This document shows, piece by piece, positions 8,068-32,253 of a DNA stretch of 32,253 nt. A model generated the notes under the pieces. It was not told where the DNA came from and searched no databases. It was given only the letters and a program-made list of their open reading frames with translations. Both the position numbers and the translations under genes were made by a program. The DNA is from a bacterium (GTDB lineage Bacteria; Verrucomicrobiota; Kiritimatiellia; RFP12; CAIWXQ01). Location: NCBI GenBank assembly GCA_037129105.1, contig JBAXVM010000003.1, positions 1 through 32,253 of the forward strand, read 5' to 3'. Positions within the stretch are counted from its first letter, which is position 1. Each line of letters opens with the position of its first letter.

Positions 8068-8427
8068 ATGAGAAAGTTCCTGCTGGTGGTGTTGGTGGGC
8101 GTGGCGGGCGTGGCCTTGTGCCTGTGGCACGTGAGACATTTCAAGGCGCAGCCGGCGAACCAAGGGTTCGAAGTTGCCATGGTGACCATGTCCGGGTCAG
8201 CCTGGATCGGGATCAAATACCACACGGAAACGGGCGAGGCCTGGAGTTCCTGGAACGGCAAATGGGTCAAGATCGAGGACCCGACCAAGCTACCCCTAGG
8301 GCGTTACGTCATCCGGATGACGCCCCTGGTCAACGACTGGGCCGCTGTCCGGCTGGAGGTGCTGAGCGGGAAAGCCTGGCAGTGCCAGCAAGGCAAGTGG
8401 ATTGAGCTGACACCTGCCGCACCCTAG
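8068..8427 (+). CDS. Hypothetical membrane-anchored/exported protein with two Trp-rich internal repeats
   Basis: Hydrophobic N-terminus MRKFLLVVLVGVAGVALCLW; repeats W.GIKYHTETGEAW...GKW and W.AVRLEVLSGKAW...GKW; 119 aa. Confidence 0.7.
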   Translation: MRKFLLVVLVGVAGVALCLWHVRHFKAQPANQGFEVAMVTMSGSAWIGIKYHTETGEAWSSWNGKWVKIEDPTKLPLGRYVIRMTPLVNDWAAVRLEVLSGKAWQCQQGKWIELTPAAP

Positions 8428-8485: not shown

Positions 8486-10413
8486 AGCTCCACCTGCACA
8501 CCGAGCTCCACGACGCGGTTGGGGGGCAGACCGAAGAACGCTGCCGCGCTCTGGGCATTGCGGGCCAGCAGCGTGAAGAGACGGCGGCGCCAGTAGACGC
8601 GCGGGCTGCGGCGGGAGAGCACAAGCGACTCCTTGCCGAGGAAGTAGCTGGCGCGGGACGGGTCGAAGGGGCCATCCGGCAGATCAATGCGCGCCAGCGT
8701 TTCGGGGACGGCTGGCGTTTCCATGAAGCCGTACCGCAGGATGACGCGGGTAATGCCATGCCCAAGGAGCTCAACTTCGTCGCGCTCTTTTTCCAGAACC
8801 GTGGGGGTCTCTTCCATGAGTACTGCCACGATTAAGGTGCGGGCGTGAAGAACCTTGTTATGCCGGTAGTTGTGGAGTAGCGCGCGCGGGACCGCCAGGC
8901 TACTGCTGGTCAGAAACACAGCCGTGCCCGGCACGCGCACCGGCTGCACCTGCGCCACGTCCTGCACAAAGTCCTCAAGCGGGAACGACTGCGACTCGAC
9001 CGTCTTGCGCAGGAAGGCGCGCCCGCTCACCCAGGTGCTCATCAGCAGCACAATCACGGCGGCCAGAATCACCACGATCCAGCCGCCGGACATCAGCTTG
9101 GCCAGGTTGGCGGAGAAAAGCGACAGGTCGAGGAGCAGGAAGCACGCACCAAAAAAGTAGAGCACCGGTCGTGGAATCGCCGGCCAAAAAGCCGGCGCGA
9201 TCAGCAGCATGAGGCAGGAAGTAATCAGCATGTCGGCAGAAACCGTAATGCCGTAGGCGGCCGCCATGTGGGTGGAATCCTTGAACACAAGGATCGCGCC
9301 TACCGTGAACACATACAGCGCAAAACTGATAAACGGCACATACACCTGCCCGATCGTGCTGGCCGAGGTATGGACAATGCGCAGCCGCGGCCAGAATCCG
9401 AGCTGCACCGCCTGGCGGGCCAGCGAGAACGTGCCGGAGATGACCGCCTGCGAAGCAATCACGGTGGCGGCCGTGGCGAGTGCCACGAGAAACGGCACAA
9501 ACCACGCCGGCGCCAGTAGATAGTAAAGATTCGCAGGGGCGGCGGCCGCGCGCCCTGACGCGATGTGCTGCAGCAGATAGGCCCCCTGCCCCATGTAGTT
9601 CAAAAAAAGCGCCGGAAAAACGAGTGCAAACCAGGTGTGCCGGATAGGCTGTTTGCCAAAGTGCCCGATATCCGCATAGAGTACTTCCGCGCCGGTCAGC
9701 GCCAGAAAGACGGTGCCCATGAGCGCAAACCCGGACCAGCCATTAATGGTCATCAGGTGAACAGCATGGATCGGATTGAGCGCCGCGAGGATGGCGGGGT
9801 ATTGGATGATTGCGCGCACACCGAGCACGGCGCACACCGTGAACCAGACCAGCATGACCGGACCGAAGAGGAGTCCGAGGCGCGTGGAACCTTTCGATTG
9901 CAACAGGAAGAGCGCCGTCAACGTGAGCAGCGTCAGCGGAATGATCAGCCATTCCAGCATGGGCGCAGTAACCATCACGCCTTCCACGGCGCTCAACACG
10001 GAGATGGCTGGCGTAATCACACCATCGCTGAACAGCAGCGCGGCGCCAACCGCACCAACCGTGGCCAGGAGCACGCCGTTGCGCAGTCGCTGCGGACCCA
10101 GGCGCACGACCAGCGCCTGGAGCGCGATAATCCCGCCCTCGCCGCGGTTATCCGCGCGCAAAACCAGCAGGATGTACTTCACGCAAACAACGAGCACCAG
10201 CAGCCAGAACAGCAGCGAAACCGTTCCCAGAACATTTGCGGACGTGAGGTCGAGTTTGTGCGATCCAACAAAGCACTCGCGCAGGGCATACAGCGGGCTT
10301 GTGCCGATATCGCCGAACACCACGCCCAGCGCCGCCACCATCAGGGCCAGCGTCCTGGCGCGGCTGCCGGTCGCCGCCGGTCCGTCAGCCACCACTGGAG
10401 TGTCGTTGCTCAT
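8482..10413 (-). CDS. kup: KUP/HAK/KT potassium uptake transporter
   Basis: GVVFGDIGTSPLYA, RADNRGEGG, TGAEVLYADIGHFG, AAAYG, C-terminal VVELGVQVEL. Confidence 0.95.
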   Translation of the reverse strand: MSNDTPVVADGPAATGSRARTLALMVAALGVVFGDIGTSPLYALRECFVGSHKLDLTSANVLGTVSLLFWLLVLVVCVKYILLVLRADNRGEGGIIALQALVVRLGPQRLRNGVLLATVGAVGAALLFSDGVITPAISVLSAVEGVMVTAPMLEWLIIPLTLLTLTALFLLQSKGSTRLGLLFGPVMLVWFTVCAVLGVRAIIQYPAILAALNPIHAVHLMTINGWSGFALMGTVFLALTGAEVLYADIGHFGKQPIRHTWFALVFPALFLNYMGQGAYLLQHIASGRAAAAPANLYYLLAPAWFVPFLVALATAATVIASQAVISGTFSLARQAVQLGFWPRLRIVHTSASTIGQVYVPFISFALYVFTVGAILVFKDSTHMAAAYGITVSADMLITSCLMLLIAPAFWPAIPRPVLYFFGACFLLLDLSLFSANLAKLMSGGWIVVILAAVIVLLMSTWVSGRAFLRKTVESQSFPLEDFVQDVAQVQPVRVPGTAVFLTSSSLAVPRALLHNYRHNKVLHARTLIVAVLMEETPTVLEKERDEVELLGHGITRVILRYGFMETPAVPETLARIDLPDGPFDPSRASYFLGKESLVLSRRSPRVYWRRRLFTLLARNAQSAAAFFGLPPNRVVELGVQVEL

Positions 10414-29668: not shown

Positions 29669-30459
29669 TGCACAACGTGCTGGCCGTGGCGGGTGTGGTC
29701 CTGCGCTGCTGGGCGCGGCGCAAGGAGGGGTATATCCTGGTCCTGATCCTAGCTGGCGTGCAATATGCCGTCGCCTCCATGGATGTCCTGTCGACGGGGG
29801 CCTCGTCGCTCTATCTCTATGATATCGGGCTACTCCTGACGTGGTTCCTGGGGTGGCTCATTGCCATCCATGTCGGCGCGAGCGAACTCCCTGGCGAGGA
29901 ATCACGCGGCACGGTCTTCCTGTTGCTGGCCAAGCCCCTGCACCGCGCGGAGCTGATCGCGGGCAAATGGCTGGGAGCCTGGCTCACGGTCATTGTTTGT
30001 ACACTGGCCTTCCATCTGGTCGTGCTTCTCTCGGCGCTGGCCGCCGGCGTGCACCCTCCCTGGCCCGCACTGGCGGAAATGTGCCTGATGCATCTGGTTT
30101 CGCTGGCCGTGCTGACAGCCATGGCCATCGCGATCTCAACGCGCCTCAACCGCGACGCCGCCGTGTCCCTGGCCGTAACGGCCGCGCTGGCCATCTTCCT
30201 GATCGTTCCCAAGATCCCCAAACTCGCCCCTTACGCCACAGGTTGGCGCACCGGCATGTTCGATCTGCTCTACTACATGCTGCCGCATCTGGAGCTGTTC
30301 GACCTGCGCCGTCGCGTGCTGCATGGCTATGGCCCCATCCCCGGAAGCACGCTGGCGCTGCTCGCTGCATACGGTGCTGCCTGGACCGGCATCCTTCTTT
30401 TGCTCGCCTGGCTGGCTTACCGAAACCGGAGATTCCAGCGCGACCGGATGCTCGAGTAA
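29668..30459 (+). CDS. ABC-2 type transporter permease
   Basis: About 6 hydrophobic segments; E..RGT..LLLAKPL.R.E...GKWLG motif; TAATG coupling to the ATPase gene. Confidence 0.88.
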   Translation: MHNVLAVAGVVLRCWARRKEGYILVLILAGVQYAVASMDVLSTGASSLYLYDIGLLLTWFLGWLIAIHVGASELPGEESRGTVFLLLAKPLHRAELIAGKWLGAWLTVIVCTLAFHLVVLLSALAAGVHPPWPALAEMCLMHLVSLAVLTAMAIAISTRLNRDAAVSLAVTAALAIFLIVPKIPKLAPYATGWRTGMFDLLYYMLPHLELFDLRRRVLHGYGPIPGSTLALLAAYGAAWTGILLLLAWLAYRNRRFQRDRMLE

Positions 30460-30482
30460 GCCGGCGCTGTCGCGCAGACTTA

Positions 30483-30517
30483 CAGGGTTCAGGGTTCAAG
30501 GGTCAGGGGTCAGATAT
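30483..30517 (+). repeat. Degenerate 7-bp tandem repeat, ~5 units
   Basis: cagggtt cagggtt caagggt caggggt cagatat directly before ATG30519. Confidence 0.7.
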
Positions 30518-30518
30518 C

Positions 30519-31367
30519 ATGCGCAATCGCCTTATACCAGGGTTGCTCCTGATGCTGCTGGTAACGGCGGCGTTTGTGCTGGCATGCCGGCTGACCGCCA
30601 CCGGCATCGCCGGCACCACGGACCGCAGTGAGGATGCACTGGAGAGCCTGCTGGGCGGCAGCCGCATCTTTCTCGGTGGCCTGGCCATGAACCGCGCCGA
30701 CCTGTATCTCCACCGCGGCCTGGTCGGCAACGAGGCCGCAGCCTTTTCCAATCGCTGGTTTCAACGCATGAATGCACTCATCTCACCCAACGTCCTCGAA
30801 CACCGCGAGGGCGCCGAAGGGATGAAAGATGTGCTCCCGTGGGTTACACTGGCGGCTCGGGCCGCGCCCACCAACACCGATTATGTGCTGACGCAGACCT
30901 TCCTGTTCCGGGTAACCGGCAACCCTCAGCGTGCGCTTCTGGAAGTCCGCCGGGTGCGCGCGCATCAACCACAAAACCCCGAGCTGTGGCTGGAGGAATC
31001 CCGCATTCGCCTCGCCCTGAACCAATGGGACCGCGCCACGGCCGGACTGGACAGTTGCGCCAGACTGATCGGGACACAGCCGTCACCGGAACAAAGCCCG
31101 TTGCTCGCGGAAACCTGCATGTGGCGCGGACTGCTTTACGAACGCACCGGCGACAGCAATTCCGCCGCAACCTTACTGATGCAAGCCATCCGGCTGGAAC
31201 CACAAATGTACGGGGCGCTCTCCAACCGCGTGGCCGCACTGCAGGCCGGCCTGCCCCCGCCAGTACCCGTAACCGAAGTGCTCGCGAAGTACCGCCGTAT
31301 GGCCGCCAACCCGCTCTGCACACACGACCACGAACAGGGACATGCGCACGACGAGGATGACGAGTGA
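30519..31367 (+). CDS. Membrane-anchored/exported TPR-like helical protein with His/acid-rich tail
   Basis: Hydrophobic N-terminus; ADLYLHRG motif; TPR-like helices (WRGLLYERTGDSNSAATLLMQAIRLEP); C-terminal CTHDHEQGHAHDEDDE. Confidence 0.75.
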   Translation: MRNRLIPGLLLMLLVTAAFVLACRLTATGIAGTTDRSEDALESLLGGSRIFLGGLAMNRADLYLHRGLVGNEAAAFSNRWFQRMNALISPNVLEHREGAEGMKDVLPWVTLAARAAPTNTDYVLTQTFLFRVTGNPQRALLEVRRVRAHQPQNPELWLEESRIRLALNQWDRATAGLDSCARLIGTQPSPEQSPLLAETCMWRGLLYERTGDSNSAATLLMQAIRLEPQMYGALSNRVAALQAGLPPPVPVTEVLAKYRRMAANPLCTHDHEQGHAHDEDDE

Positions 31368-31372
31368 GTGGG

Positions 31373-31402
31373 AGGGACGGAGGAAGGGACCGGAGGGACG
31401 GA
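31373..31402 (+). repeat. 9-bp repeat array AGGGACNNN, 3 units
   Basis: agggacgga-gga-agggaccgg-agggacgga, located between the two convergent stops. Confidence 0.7.
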
Positions 31403-31410
31403 AACGGCTA

Positions 31411-32163
31411 CTATGCCGTCTCTGCTCGCCCTTCCTTCATGTCCCTTGGGTCCCTGCCGTCCCTCACGTCCCTGCCGTCCCTCACGTCCCTTCCGTCCCT
31501 CACGTCCCTTCCGTCCCTTCCGTCCCTCACGTCCCTTCCGTCCCTTTCCCCGCCCGGCAGTCTCATCAGCGTTGTCCGGCGCGCTACCCGCTGCTTCTCG
31601 ATGCTCTCGGTCCTGTGTCGGAACTCGAGGCGGGCACGGGTCATACGTTCACGCAAACCGCCTTCGGCAATAAAGTCGCGCTCCAAGCGGTCGAGTTGGC
31701 CATTGAGTAGTCGCATGGTCACGCGTGTCAGCCCGGCCAGCACATTGGCACAGATAGTGGGGTCGGCGTGCTCGATGCCCTTCTGAAAGGTTGCGTAATC
31801 AGCCCCGGGTTTACGGCAAAGTTGCGAAAGGTGGCGAGCCAGGGGATGGGCAGGAGGCCACTCTGACAAATCGCGAACGTATAGAAAGTCACGATAATCC
31901 TCCAGCAATTCGCCCAGACTGGCCAACGCCACACCGGTAAGTTTAATTTCGGTCTCCTTGGAGACAGCCGCCGCGAGACTCCCCTCGACAATGTTCTGCT
32001 TGCCGGATCGGGCGGCCTGTTCCATCTGGTCGGTCGTGCGCGAAATACGCGGCACCCAGTGCTTGATAAAGAATACTGTGCCTTTATAGACCACCCGCGC
32101 CTTCTGGTAAGTAAGCAGTTGCTTGTAACCGCCGAACTTCGGGATAAAGCCTGGAGCGTTCAT
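31411..32163 (-). CDS. Four-helix-bundle protein (23S-IVS/Avd-like, TIGR02436) with four-helix-bundle suffix domain (TIGR04258-like) and repeat-encoded (RDx)12 tail
   Basis: GGYKQLLTYQKA, RTTDQMEQAARSGKQNIVEGS, EIKLTGVA.ASL.ELLEDY.DFL, suffix LERDFIAEGGLRERMTRAR. Confidence 0.9.
   Translation of the reverse strand: MNAPGFIPKFGGYKQLLTYQKARVVYKGTVFFIKHWVPRISRTTDQMEQAARSGKQNIVEGSLAAAVSKETEIKLTGVALASLGELLEDYRDFLYVRDLSEWPPAHPLARHLSQLCRKPGADYATFQKGIEHADPTICANVLAGLTRVTMRLLNGQLDRLERDFIAEGGLRERMTRARLEFRHRTESIEKQRVARRTTLMRLPGGERDGRDVRDGRDGRDVRDGRDVRDGRDVRDGRDPRDMKEGRAETA
31441..31548 (-). repeat. 12 x 9-bp tandem repeat (GTCCCTNNN on +), translated as RDG/RDV
   Basis: Units gtcccttgg, gtccctgcc, gtccctcac, gtcccttcc and variants, contiguous from 31441 to 31548. 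Confidence 0.95.
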
Positions 32164-32180
32164 GTGCGATGCCTTTGGTT

Positions 32181-32253
32181 AGGGACCGAAGGGACGGGAG
32201 GGACCGAAGGGACGGGAGGGACCGAAGGGACGGGAGGGACCGAAGGGACGGGA
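32181..32253 (+). repeat. At least 8 x 9-bp tandem repeat (4 perfect 18-mers AGGGACCGA-AGGGACGGG), truncated by the window end
   Basis: Read directly; begins 17 nt upstream of the four-helix-bundle ATG and is inverted relative to 31441-31548. Confidence 0.95.

Follow-up and report, generated by a model that had tools for sequence, protein, structure and literature searches.

A four-helix-bundle gene between inverted tandem arrays in a Kiritimatiellia contig, probably a selfish cassette of the rRNA intervening sequence type

In the REP/REPIN systems (repetitive extragenic palindromic sequences), a RAYT gene (REP-associated tyrosine transposase) lies between inverted copies of a repeat, further copies of which are scattered through the genome as hairpin-forming doublets, and several such families, each with its own gene, can be found in one genome. 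Avd, the accessory protein of diversity-generating retroelements, is a small basic helical bundle belonging to the same Pfam and fold family as the proteins annotated as "four helix bundle protein", while the cyanobacterial STRR sequences are short tandemly repeated heptamers. The present analysis deals with a gene of this protein family and with the inverted tandem arrays that enclose it, at the end of a 32,253-bp stretch of DNA (hereafter the window) that is the entire contig C223 of G000, a fragmented genome bin of the Kiritimatiellia (3.10 Mb, 62% GC, 440 contigs, 77% complete). This copy is probably a selfish cassette of the intervening sequence (IVS) type, whose arrays would form an RNase III-type stem as well as binding sites for its own protein. 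It is one of a widespread class of cassettes that have the same design as the 23S rRNA IVSs, an open reading frame (ORF) of the TIGR02436 family being located between inverted tandem arrays.

The closest described elements are the ORF-bearing IVSs of rRNA genes. Passages of PMC4990558 indicate that rRNA IVSs lie at helix tips, that the terminal inverted repeats of the Coxiella IVS form a 28-bp stem, which RNase III cleaves in vitro, and that three tandem heptamers precede its ORF, in a copy number that varies between strains. The family has a conserved motif G..R...S...N..E, and 18 of its genes are located inside cas loci, as described in part of PMC3936711. Dispersed heptanucleotide elements were reported in Geobacter metallireducens (PMC2700814, in part) and dispersed TAACTGA repeats in Beggiatoaceae (PMC4679880, in part). 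The terms "S23", "four-helix" and "four helix" are absent from the texts of these last two papers, and the passages found in them do not link the repeats to a gene family. More generally, no paper stating a general link between the family and arrays was found among main texts; Table S4 and Figures S2-S5 of PMC2700814 list heptamer-adjacent genes.

The features of the copy, read from the minus strand, are the following:

32181..32253: upstream array, eight units AGGGACNNN on the plus strand (Tandem Repeats Finder, spacing scan, pattern search)
31411..32163, minus strand: cassette ORF of 250 aa, stop codon included (ORF list; TIGR04258 match)
31597..32163, minus strand: conserved protein core, aa 1-189 (24-sequence alignment, AlphaFold model)
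31441..31546: 3' array, 11.8 units GTCCCTNNN on the plus strand, AGGGACNNN on the sense strand (Tandem Repeats Finder, period 9)
31403..31440: loop of the downstream hairpin, 38 nt, holding the ORF stop codon and a small internal stem ACGGC...GCCGT
31373..31402: short distal array, three AGGGAC cores on the plus strand, GTCCC on the sense strand

The eight GGGAC cores of the upstream array lie at 32182-32249, in units that read AGGGACNNN on the plus strand and NNNGTCCCT on the sense strand of the gene. Tandem Repeats Finder (TRF) describes this array as an 18-nt super-unit present 4.1 times with a 100% match, CGA and GGG spacers alternating. It comprises at least eight units, being cut by the contig end, and its other end lies 17 nt before the ATG. 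The 3' array includes 12 GTCCC cores at 31441-31544 with an exact spacing of 9 nt, on which sequence reading, TRF, the spacing scan and the pattern search agree. The original prediction, drawn from the letters of the window, had described inverted 9-bp arrays with at least eight units upstream and 12 units at the 3' end, and an invariant GGGAC/GTCCC core in which only the 3-nt spacers vary. All these points are confirmed, the invariant part of both main arrays being the core plus one flanking base (GTCCCT/AGGGAC). The motif GGGAC-N4-GGGAC-N4-GGGAC has 16 matches in the window, every one inside the two main arrays, for an expectation of 0.00 (100 shuffles). The second array, which had been placed at the 3' end of the gene, is indeed there, but more exactly it lies within the last part of the ORF, where it codes for an (RDG/RDV)n tail. 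In the same way, the third AGGGAC array announced past the stop exists, between the convergent stops of the neighbouring ORF (31367) and of the cassette ORF (31411), but it is weaker than the others, with GGGAC cores at 31374, 31386 and 31395 and spacings of 12 and 9 nt (TRF: period 13, 1.9 copies). Along the sense strand, the order is (GTCCC)n, 17 nt, the ORF running into (GGGAC)12, the 38-nt loop and (GTCCC)3.

A full layout can be seen in L241, a locus carrying an 88% identical cassette. There, a G-first hairpin, (GGGAC-type)6 - loop - (GTCCC)4, is followed by 17 nt, then by the ORF running into (AGGGAC)6, a loop and (GTCCC)9, and the 3' array is read through in the same frame as in the window. 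By analogy, this suggests that the missing part of the window copy is probably the other arm of its upstream hairpin, that is, a loop and a GGGAC-type partner array located beyond the contig end. Hairpin-ORF-hairpin is the usual layout of the subfamily carrying the TIGR04258 suffix domain (L241, L254, L258). In the minimum free energy (MFE) fold (-408.9 kcal/mol, z = -7.35), the upstream array pairs with the 3' array around the ORF, as in the long bulged stem that had been imagined, and the last GGGAC units pair with the short GUCCC array around the 38-nt loop to give a local hairpin, an alternative that had also been foreseen. The ORF is nevertheless probably flanked by two local hairpins, which can also pair with each other, and does not simply lie in one loop.

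The association of arrays with this gene family extends well beyond the window. G000 has 10 matches to TIGR02436, 4 of which also have the suffix, and all 10 are bracketed on both sides by arrays, each by its own unit family: GAGTGTGG/CCCCCACA, AGGGGTC/CCTGACC, CTTTAGC/AAAGGCT, AATCATG/CATGATT or AACGTCC/TTGGACG, for example, and 9- or 10-mers at the four suffix genes. The family is present in 28 of the 31 genomes of the order. From 24 of these genomes, 105 family matches were pooled (including the 10 of G000 and 40 picked as full-length); removal of 19 matches shorter than 95 aa and of 7 at contig edges left 79 genes, a sample of loci rather than an exhaustive survey, from related genomes that are not independent. 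Inverted arrays matching within one mismatch flank 43 of these genes; 5 have direct arrays, 18 one-sided arrays, 4 unmatched arrays and 9 none. None of 300 random control windows of 320 bp (200 from eight relatives, 100 from G000) showed matched inverted or direct arrays. Furthermore, the inverted-repeat score between flanks exceeds the 99th percentile of the controls for 65 of the 79 genes. The enrichment near four-helix-bundle genes that had been anticipated is thus found both in G000 and in the order.

It could be argued that this adjacency is a mere coincidence in a genome riddled with microsatellites. TRF finds 781 arrays in G000 (period 5-12, at least 3 copies, 28.4 kb in total), i.e., approximately one per 4 kb, including 23 arrays of GGGAC/GTCCC 9-mers on 15 contigs, several of them as close inverted pairs. 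Such a coincidence is nonetheless extremely improbable, since matched flanking arrays occur in 0 of 100 random windows of G000 and 0 of 200 of its relatives versus 43 of the 79 genes, and since the same design is found in cyanobacteria, in Azospirillum rRNA and under more than a dozen phylum-level labels. G007, an array-poor genome with 24 family genes, has 1.5 strong arrays per 100 kb, and the 200 kb sampled from it contained no inverted pair; the association therefore holds in genomes otherwise poor in arrays. Array density shows no simple relation to the number of family genes across 9 genomes. A mode at 31 nt was seen among heptamer arrays; repeat collapse in short-read assembly is possible, and nothing is built on this mode.

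The array-gene-array assembly is a discrete unit of insertion and deletion. Two cassettes of G000, each lying in the short gap between two genes of the same orientation, have empty counterparts in congeners. For the 458-bp cassette of C113, the flanks are separated by 15 bp (G003) and 12 bp (G001), and for the cassette of C436 (~550 bp), the gaps are 38 (G003), 53 (G001) and 64 bp (G002). The empty sites between orthologous neighbours that had been predicted thus exist for the two sister cassettes tested, and four of the five are free of arrays, the exception being G002. Occupied and empty sites are only ~70-80% identical, too diverged for target duplications to be read. Among six pairs of related cassettes from different genomes, similarity is confined to array-gene-array in five, the sixth being syntenic. 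Likewise, four loci from metagenome-assembled genomes (MAGs; L241-L244), whose proteins are 85-88% identical to that of the window, share with it only the region 31510-32215, their flanks being unrelated. The orthologue of the gene adjacent to the window cassette is followed in G003 and G004 by other genes, with neither cassette nor array, so the gene is not one that relatives keep in place without its arrays. The arrays therefore belong to the cassette and not merely to its insertion site, and the cassette behaves as a small mobile element, in agreement with the repeat-bounded mobile cassette of the original prediction. It does not qualify as a miniature inverted-repeat transposable element (MITE), having a conserved ORF under purifying selection.

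The opposite relationship, in which arrays would be pre-existing intergenic hairpins or microsatellite sites where four-helix-bundle genes preferentially insert, has also to be considered. G000 contains, besides its 781 short-period arrays, 100 inverted pairs of one unit, of which 74 are gene-less with loops under 250 bp. Gene-less arrays and cassettes use a common vocabulary of units: five of the top 25 units of G000 exactly match cassette units of other genomes, for 0.46 expected. A solo array at the site of the C436 cassette in G002 and the helix-tip location of rRNA IVSs given in passages of PMC4990558 point in the same direction. This explanation is however unlikely: four of the five empty sites have no array, the arrays are included in the homology between cassettes located at unrelated loci, their period and core track the protein subfamily across phyla, and array-flanked genes are found in genomes otherwise nearly devoid of arrays. 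The solo array of G002 (L208, G002:C7:1965-2028) is made of AACGYYC units without any gene and occupies the exact site of the cassette, which is empty in G001 and G003; it might be what a loss left behind or, alternatively, a seed for insertion.

Dispersed gene-less hairpins have proliferated particularly in G000, which has 3.2 inverted pairs per 100 kb versus 0-2 in the eight other genomes sampled. The possibility that they are deletion derivatives of cassettes was explored on 41 loops of 45-700 bp and was not retained: family similarity was detected in 8, all of them known cassettes, and in none of the other 33. Several gene-less families (e.g., C105:1357-1444, C389:9199-9292, C24:9379-9491, C323:7325-7437) have conserved loops and outer flanks and are dispersed MITE-like copies. 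Eight copies of an ACGAGG hairpin family share an identical 23-nt loop, and the AACGTCC/AACGCCC hairpins have an additional outer inverted repeat of ~30 nt. The other gene-sized inverted pairs of G000 (C102, C240, C334, C381, C410, C430, C89) were rejected as cassettes; they enclose ordinary genes and correspond to adjacent intergenic hairpins of one unit. In the window itself, most of the 59-bp gap that separates a permease-like ORF (stop at 30459) from the following one (ATG at 30519) is taken up by a solo heptamer array (CAGGGTT/CAGGGGT, 4.4 copies, 30483-30513) ending 5 nt before this ATG; the unit family of the array, AACCCTG, is the commonest of G000, with 25 arrays.

Both the sequence and the period of the units co-vary with the lineage of the protein. 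Comparison of 75 cassettes (2775 pairs) gives 13 pairs with identical units, all with at least 61% protein identity (median 91%, against 24% for all pairs; 0 of 2000 permutations). Identical units are found in 9 of 15 pairs at 80% protein identity or more, 3 of 13 at 70-80%, 1 of 24 at 60-70% and in none of the 2723 pairs below that. Purifying selection on the protein is strong (dN/dS of 0.03-0.09 at dS of 0.27-1.2, where computable), and units are identical even at dS of 0.9-1.2 or at saturation. Both arms change together between lineages; complementarity is therefore maintained. The period differs between the two subfamilies. For short-type genes, the 76 best arrays have a period of 7 in 52 cases, 8 in 14, 6 in 7 and at least 9 in 2. 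For suffix genes of the order, 56 arrays at 23 of 28 loci have periods of 9 nt (31), 10 nt (13), 8 nt (9) and 7 nt or less (3). Across phyla, 32 of 43 suffix loci have arrays and the period is 9 in 50 of 61 arrays; these loci are labelled Kiritimatiellia, Lentisphaerales, Verrucomicrobia, Chlorobiaceae, Syntrophobacteraceae, Hydrogenedentota, Zetaproteobacteria, Nitrospirales, Parachlamydiales, Muribaculaceae, candidate-phyla bacteria and others. Their cores are GGGAC, AGGAC, GGTC or GTCAGAC, even in DNA of 33-44% GC. Within the sample of the order, xxGGGACxx 9-mers are found in four of the five nearest relatives of the window gene (L217, L218, L224, L213; 45-53% identity), and no array was detected at the nearest one (L216, 61% identity).

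These data bear on another explanation, according to which the arrays are purely structural (stem, terminator or RNA-stabilising hairpin) and are not recognised by the protein, the conservation of units reflecting co-inheritance and slow evolution of the two arms. Several points agree with it. The two arms show high complementarity, with duplex energies from -36 to -115 kcal/mol, and retain it while units differ between lineages, IVS stems are RNase III substrates (PMC4990558, in the passages cited above), and the downstream hairpin of the window lies between convergent stops, where G003 has a plain GC-rich hairpin. Neither a constant period nor an unchanging core would be required of a pure stem, however, whereas in the window the spacers are non-complementary and the GGGAC core is invariant. 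Furthermore, the period is set by the protein subfamily (7 versus 9-10 nt), a GGAC-type core persists across phyla between proteins that are ~45-60% identical, AT-rich genomes included, and most cassettes have tandem arrays rather than simple inverted repeats. A purely structural role thus appears rather unlikely, while keeping some plausibility, and the arrays of an IVS-type cassette would more probably serve both as stem and as sites for its protein.

The protein encoded in the window contains the TIGR04258 suffix domain (55.8 bits for a cut-off of 40; residues 135-182, profile positions 1-48 of 49). It had been expected to be of the TIGR02436 type; its fold and its conserved motif agree with this assignment, but it falls narrowly short of the TIGR02436 cut-off (22.3 versus 24 bits) and below that of PF05635 (21.5 versus 33.8 bits), both matches covering only the first ~70 profile positions. 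The AlphaFold model (mean predicted local distance difference test, pLDDT, 88; predicted TM score, pTM, 0.82) has helices at 17-36, 42-64 and 69-96, two short ones at 107-130, then 135-166 and 170-188. In this model, the helix 135-166, i.e., the suffix, is the fourth helix of the bundle and residues 97-134 are an insertion between helices 3 and 4; the suffix form is thus modelled as a four-helix bundle with an insertion, which accounts for the truncated match to the hidden Markov models. Alignment with 23 relatives bearing many different phylum-level labels gives a mean column identity of 60% and an invariant block RT.DQM.QAARSGKQNI.EG. The residues R52, S53, N57 and E60 of the family motif are invariant in the 24 sequences (QAARSGKQNIxEG), the register of the serine differing from that of the published consensus. 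Homology to the relatives stops near aa 182-188, and the remaining tail is the array read in frame.

A Foldseek search of the Protein Data Bank (PDB) with the model gives the chains of Xcc0516 (2gsc) as top matches, with a probability of 1.00 and TM scores of 0.73-0.76 on the target, but with an E-value of 0.044, above the 0.001 line; BT_0352 (2rld) ranks eighth among the PDB matches. The 2gsc and 2rld entries have five chains each, and both are matched by sequence by a short-type relative. With the window protein, the PDB sequence search returned only low-complexity matches to the RDG tail. The protein is basic (isoelectric point of 9.8; medians of 8.2 and 9.0 for the two subfamilies), matches only four-helix-bundle families, and shows no HUH/Y1 transposase or nuclease motif. 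Cassette decay is seen in several of its relatives: L247, L257 and L265 have in-frame stops, and L243 lacks the 3' end of the ORF and the downstream hairpin, both of which are kept in its syntenic twin L241. A Cys4 zinc ribbon forms the C-terminus of the proteins encoded by two suffix-type ORFs of G000 (G000:C234:928-1839 and G000:C112:6630-7454). In C234 and in C9:1350-2117 of the same genome, 9-mer arrays lie in frame between protein modules, as if they separated exchangeable modules.

The same design is found in distant bacteria, including in an rRNA gene. A tblastn search of plasmids with a short-type protein gave 33 records, almost all cyanobacterial, six of which were inspected. In pNPUN02 of Nostoc punctiforme, the family gene lies between AGCAGGGG (6 copies) and CCCCCTGC (8.5 copies), and a Leptolyngbya plasmid has a family gene with purine/pyrimidine arrays. 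In plasmid pPg_01 of Pseudanabaena galeata (L147, 45592-47303), the family gene is located between cas6 and cas4 and flanked by AAAAGCT (15.6 copies) and AAAAGCC (14 copies), in agreement with the cas-locus genes mentioned in part of PMC3936711. The arrays of PCC 7120 are unmatched and Nostoc commune has none. The last record, AZO_p2 of Azospirillum lipoferum, carries an unannotated family ORF inside a large subunit (LSU) rRNA gene (Rfam, 1099 bits), between GAGGACG (3.9 copies) and GTCTTCT (4.1 copies). Since this ORF lies inside the LSU rRNA between inverted heptamer arrays, it is a true IVS whose stem is the array pair, which bears out the likeness to 23S IVSs put forward initially.

The cassettes seem to depend on their neighbourhood for expression. 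The distance between array end and start codon has a median of 28.5 nt over cassettes and is 17 nt in the window copy, so that no promoter fits between them, and no sigma-70-like site was found in 30400-32253. In all 22 cassettes located between co-directional neighbours, the ORF is co-oriented with them (33 cassettes scored; gene calls by an ORF/GC3 heuristic). In the metatranscriptome run X1, 7% of the sampled words were found. Contigs of this RNA library, which show neither transcription nor ends, include one of 246 nt on 31847-32092, with 2 differences, and two of 48 nt on the upstream array. G000 encodes one RNase III gene, at 8403-9059 of C389. A hairpin made of inverted heptamer arrays (8236-8352) precedes this gene by ~50 nt, and a CTCGTC/CGAGGA hairpin (9199-9292) follows it (L286, G000:C389:8236-9292).

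A mechanism can be proposed on this basis. The cassette would be transcribed by read-through from the upstream host gene, and its (GUCCC)n and (GGGAC)n arrays would pair in the RNA, in any register, as a long bulged stem around the ORF or as two local hairpins. By analogy with rRNA IVSs, the paired arrays may provide an RNase III-type processing site, and such processing would allow the cassette to sit in operons or in rRNA harmlessly. The multimeric basic protein would recognise the periodic core of its own arrays, GGGAC every 9 nt, and movement might possibly occur by recombination through the arrays themselves. More tentatively, each lineage of the TIGR02436 family could be a sequence- and period-specific binder of its own repeat, with one protomer per unit of 7 nt (short type) or 9-10 nt (suffix type). 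Gene and arrays would then be a self-recognising selfish module, a counterpart of RAYT/REPIN, that might seed, maintain or spread the heptamer and nonamer arrays of cyanobacteria (STRR), Geobacter, Beggiatoaceae, PVC bacteria (Planctomycetes-Verrucomicrobia-Chlamydiae) and rRNA IVSs; this broader scheme is possible, although the odds do not favour it.

The location of the arrays, one in the 5' leader and the other at the 3' extremity of the ORF, as well as the strain-variable heptamer copy number before the Coxiella IVS ORF (PMC4990558, same passages), could also evoke simple-sequence contingency tracts, whose copy number would switch or tune gene expression by phase variation. This is quite unlikely, as it leaves unexplained the inverted partner, the insertion and deletion of whole cassettes and the 9-nt period that keeps the frame.

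Another hypothesis would link the cassettes to retroelements, the protein being an Avd-like accessory of a reverse transcriptase (RT) and the arrays being made or copied by reverse transcription. Avd belongs to the same Pfam family, G000 has two RT genes, and the arrays have a strong polarity. Indeed, in 36 of 44 inverted-array cassettes, the 5' array is G-rich and the 3' array C-rich, a result that is the same from either strand (p ~2.5e-5), while polarity is weak in the gene-less hairpins of G000 (41 versus 33 copies, 23 versus 10 unit families). However, this polarity, G-rich first, is mostly opposite to that expected from a telomerase-like 3' addition, which was accordingly discarded. In addition, no template/variable repeat pair was seen, and RVT_1 matches in G000 are restricted to C124 and C227, with none on C223, as first noted for the window, or beside any family gene, one of the two RTs being of the group II intron maturase type. 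A retroelement origin is therefore very unlikely. On C227, a 3.3-kb contig, the ORF at 63-1859 (L285) encodes a 599-aa reverse transcriptase with RVT_1 only and no maturase domain.

Several observations weigh against reading the locus as an IVS-type selfish cassette. The upstream array of the window copy ends at the contig edge, so its full architecture and far neighbour are not visible, and an empty site with two flanks could not be shown for this copy. Array lengths come from short-read MAG assemblies and are possibly collapsed. Family genes without array (9/79) or with direct arrays (5/79) do exist, and the 33 of 41 hairpin loops of G000 that lack any gene remnant are linked to cassettes only by their shared units. 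No mobilising enzyme has been identified, neither transposase nor RT accompanying the cassette. The co-variation of unit and protein could be mere co-inheritance of the cassette. At the RNA level, the 3-nt spacers of the two window arrays are non-complementary and interrupt the stem every 6 bp; the stem is therefore predicted to consist of successive 6-bp GGGAC(U)/(A)GUCCC helices split by 3x3 internal loops. Finally, when arm-to-arm pairing was compared in 25 cassettes, the sense strand gave the lower duplex energy 11 times and the antisense strand 12 times, i.e., there is no asymmetry pointing to selection on the RNA.

Three puzzles have been open for approximately three decades: the ORF-bearing rRNA IVSs, the common "four helix bundle protein" genes and the intergenic heptamer arrays. 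The locus of the window and its relatives tie them together, the same gene family being packaged between inverted tandem arrays in rRNA, operons, cas loci and plasmids. For annotation purposes, such arrays indicate the borders of cassettes, and they account for many of the contig breaks seen in assembled metagenomes. Moreover, the co-variation of arrays with the protein makes the binding of each protein to its own array a direct question.

As for known systems, the cassette resembles the ORF-bearing 23S IVSs of Leptospira, Coxiella and Azospirillum, which have an S23p/TIGR02436 ORF within terminal inverted repeats forming a long stem and which, as far as the sections cited describe them, are like the cassettes sporadic and horizontally spread with no mobility gene known. 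The MFE fold of the window has such a stem of terminal inverted repeats around a family ORF. Unlike these IVSs, the window copy is not located in a 23S helix or any rRNA gene: its neighbours are protein-coding, and no Rfam family reaches its gathering score in the window, where the downstream hairpin gives no more than weak chance matches of hairpin shape (MIR2118, 22 bits). It also differs in belonging to the long suffix subfamily, with 9-nt units. As in REPIN-RAYT systems, a single gene is flanked by inverted copies of a dispersed repeat, but the protein is a four-helix bundle without HUH/Y1 nuclease, the repeats are tandem arrays, and gene-less copies are nearly absent from some genomes. 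The protein shares its fold family with Avd, and its solved relatives are pentameric; unlike Avd, it has no adjacent RT and no template/variable repeats, and tandem arrays flank the gene instead. Lastly, like the STRR repeats and like those of Geobacter and Beggiatoaceae presented in the passages cited, the arrays are intergenic tandem 7-mers in few copies, often near start codons or as palindromic pairs, and dispersed many times. In contrast to what those passages describe for Geobacter and Beggiatoaceae, arrays of the window type, like those of the Nostoc punctiforme, Leptolyngbya and Pseudanabaena plasmids, bracket one gene family and co-vary with it.

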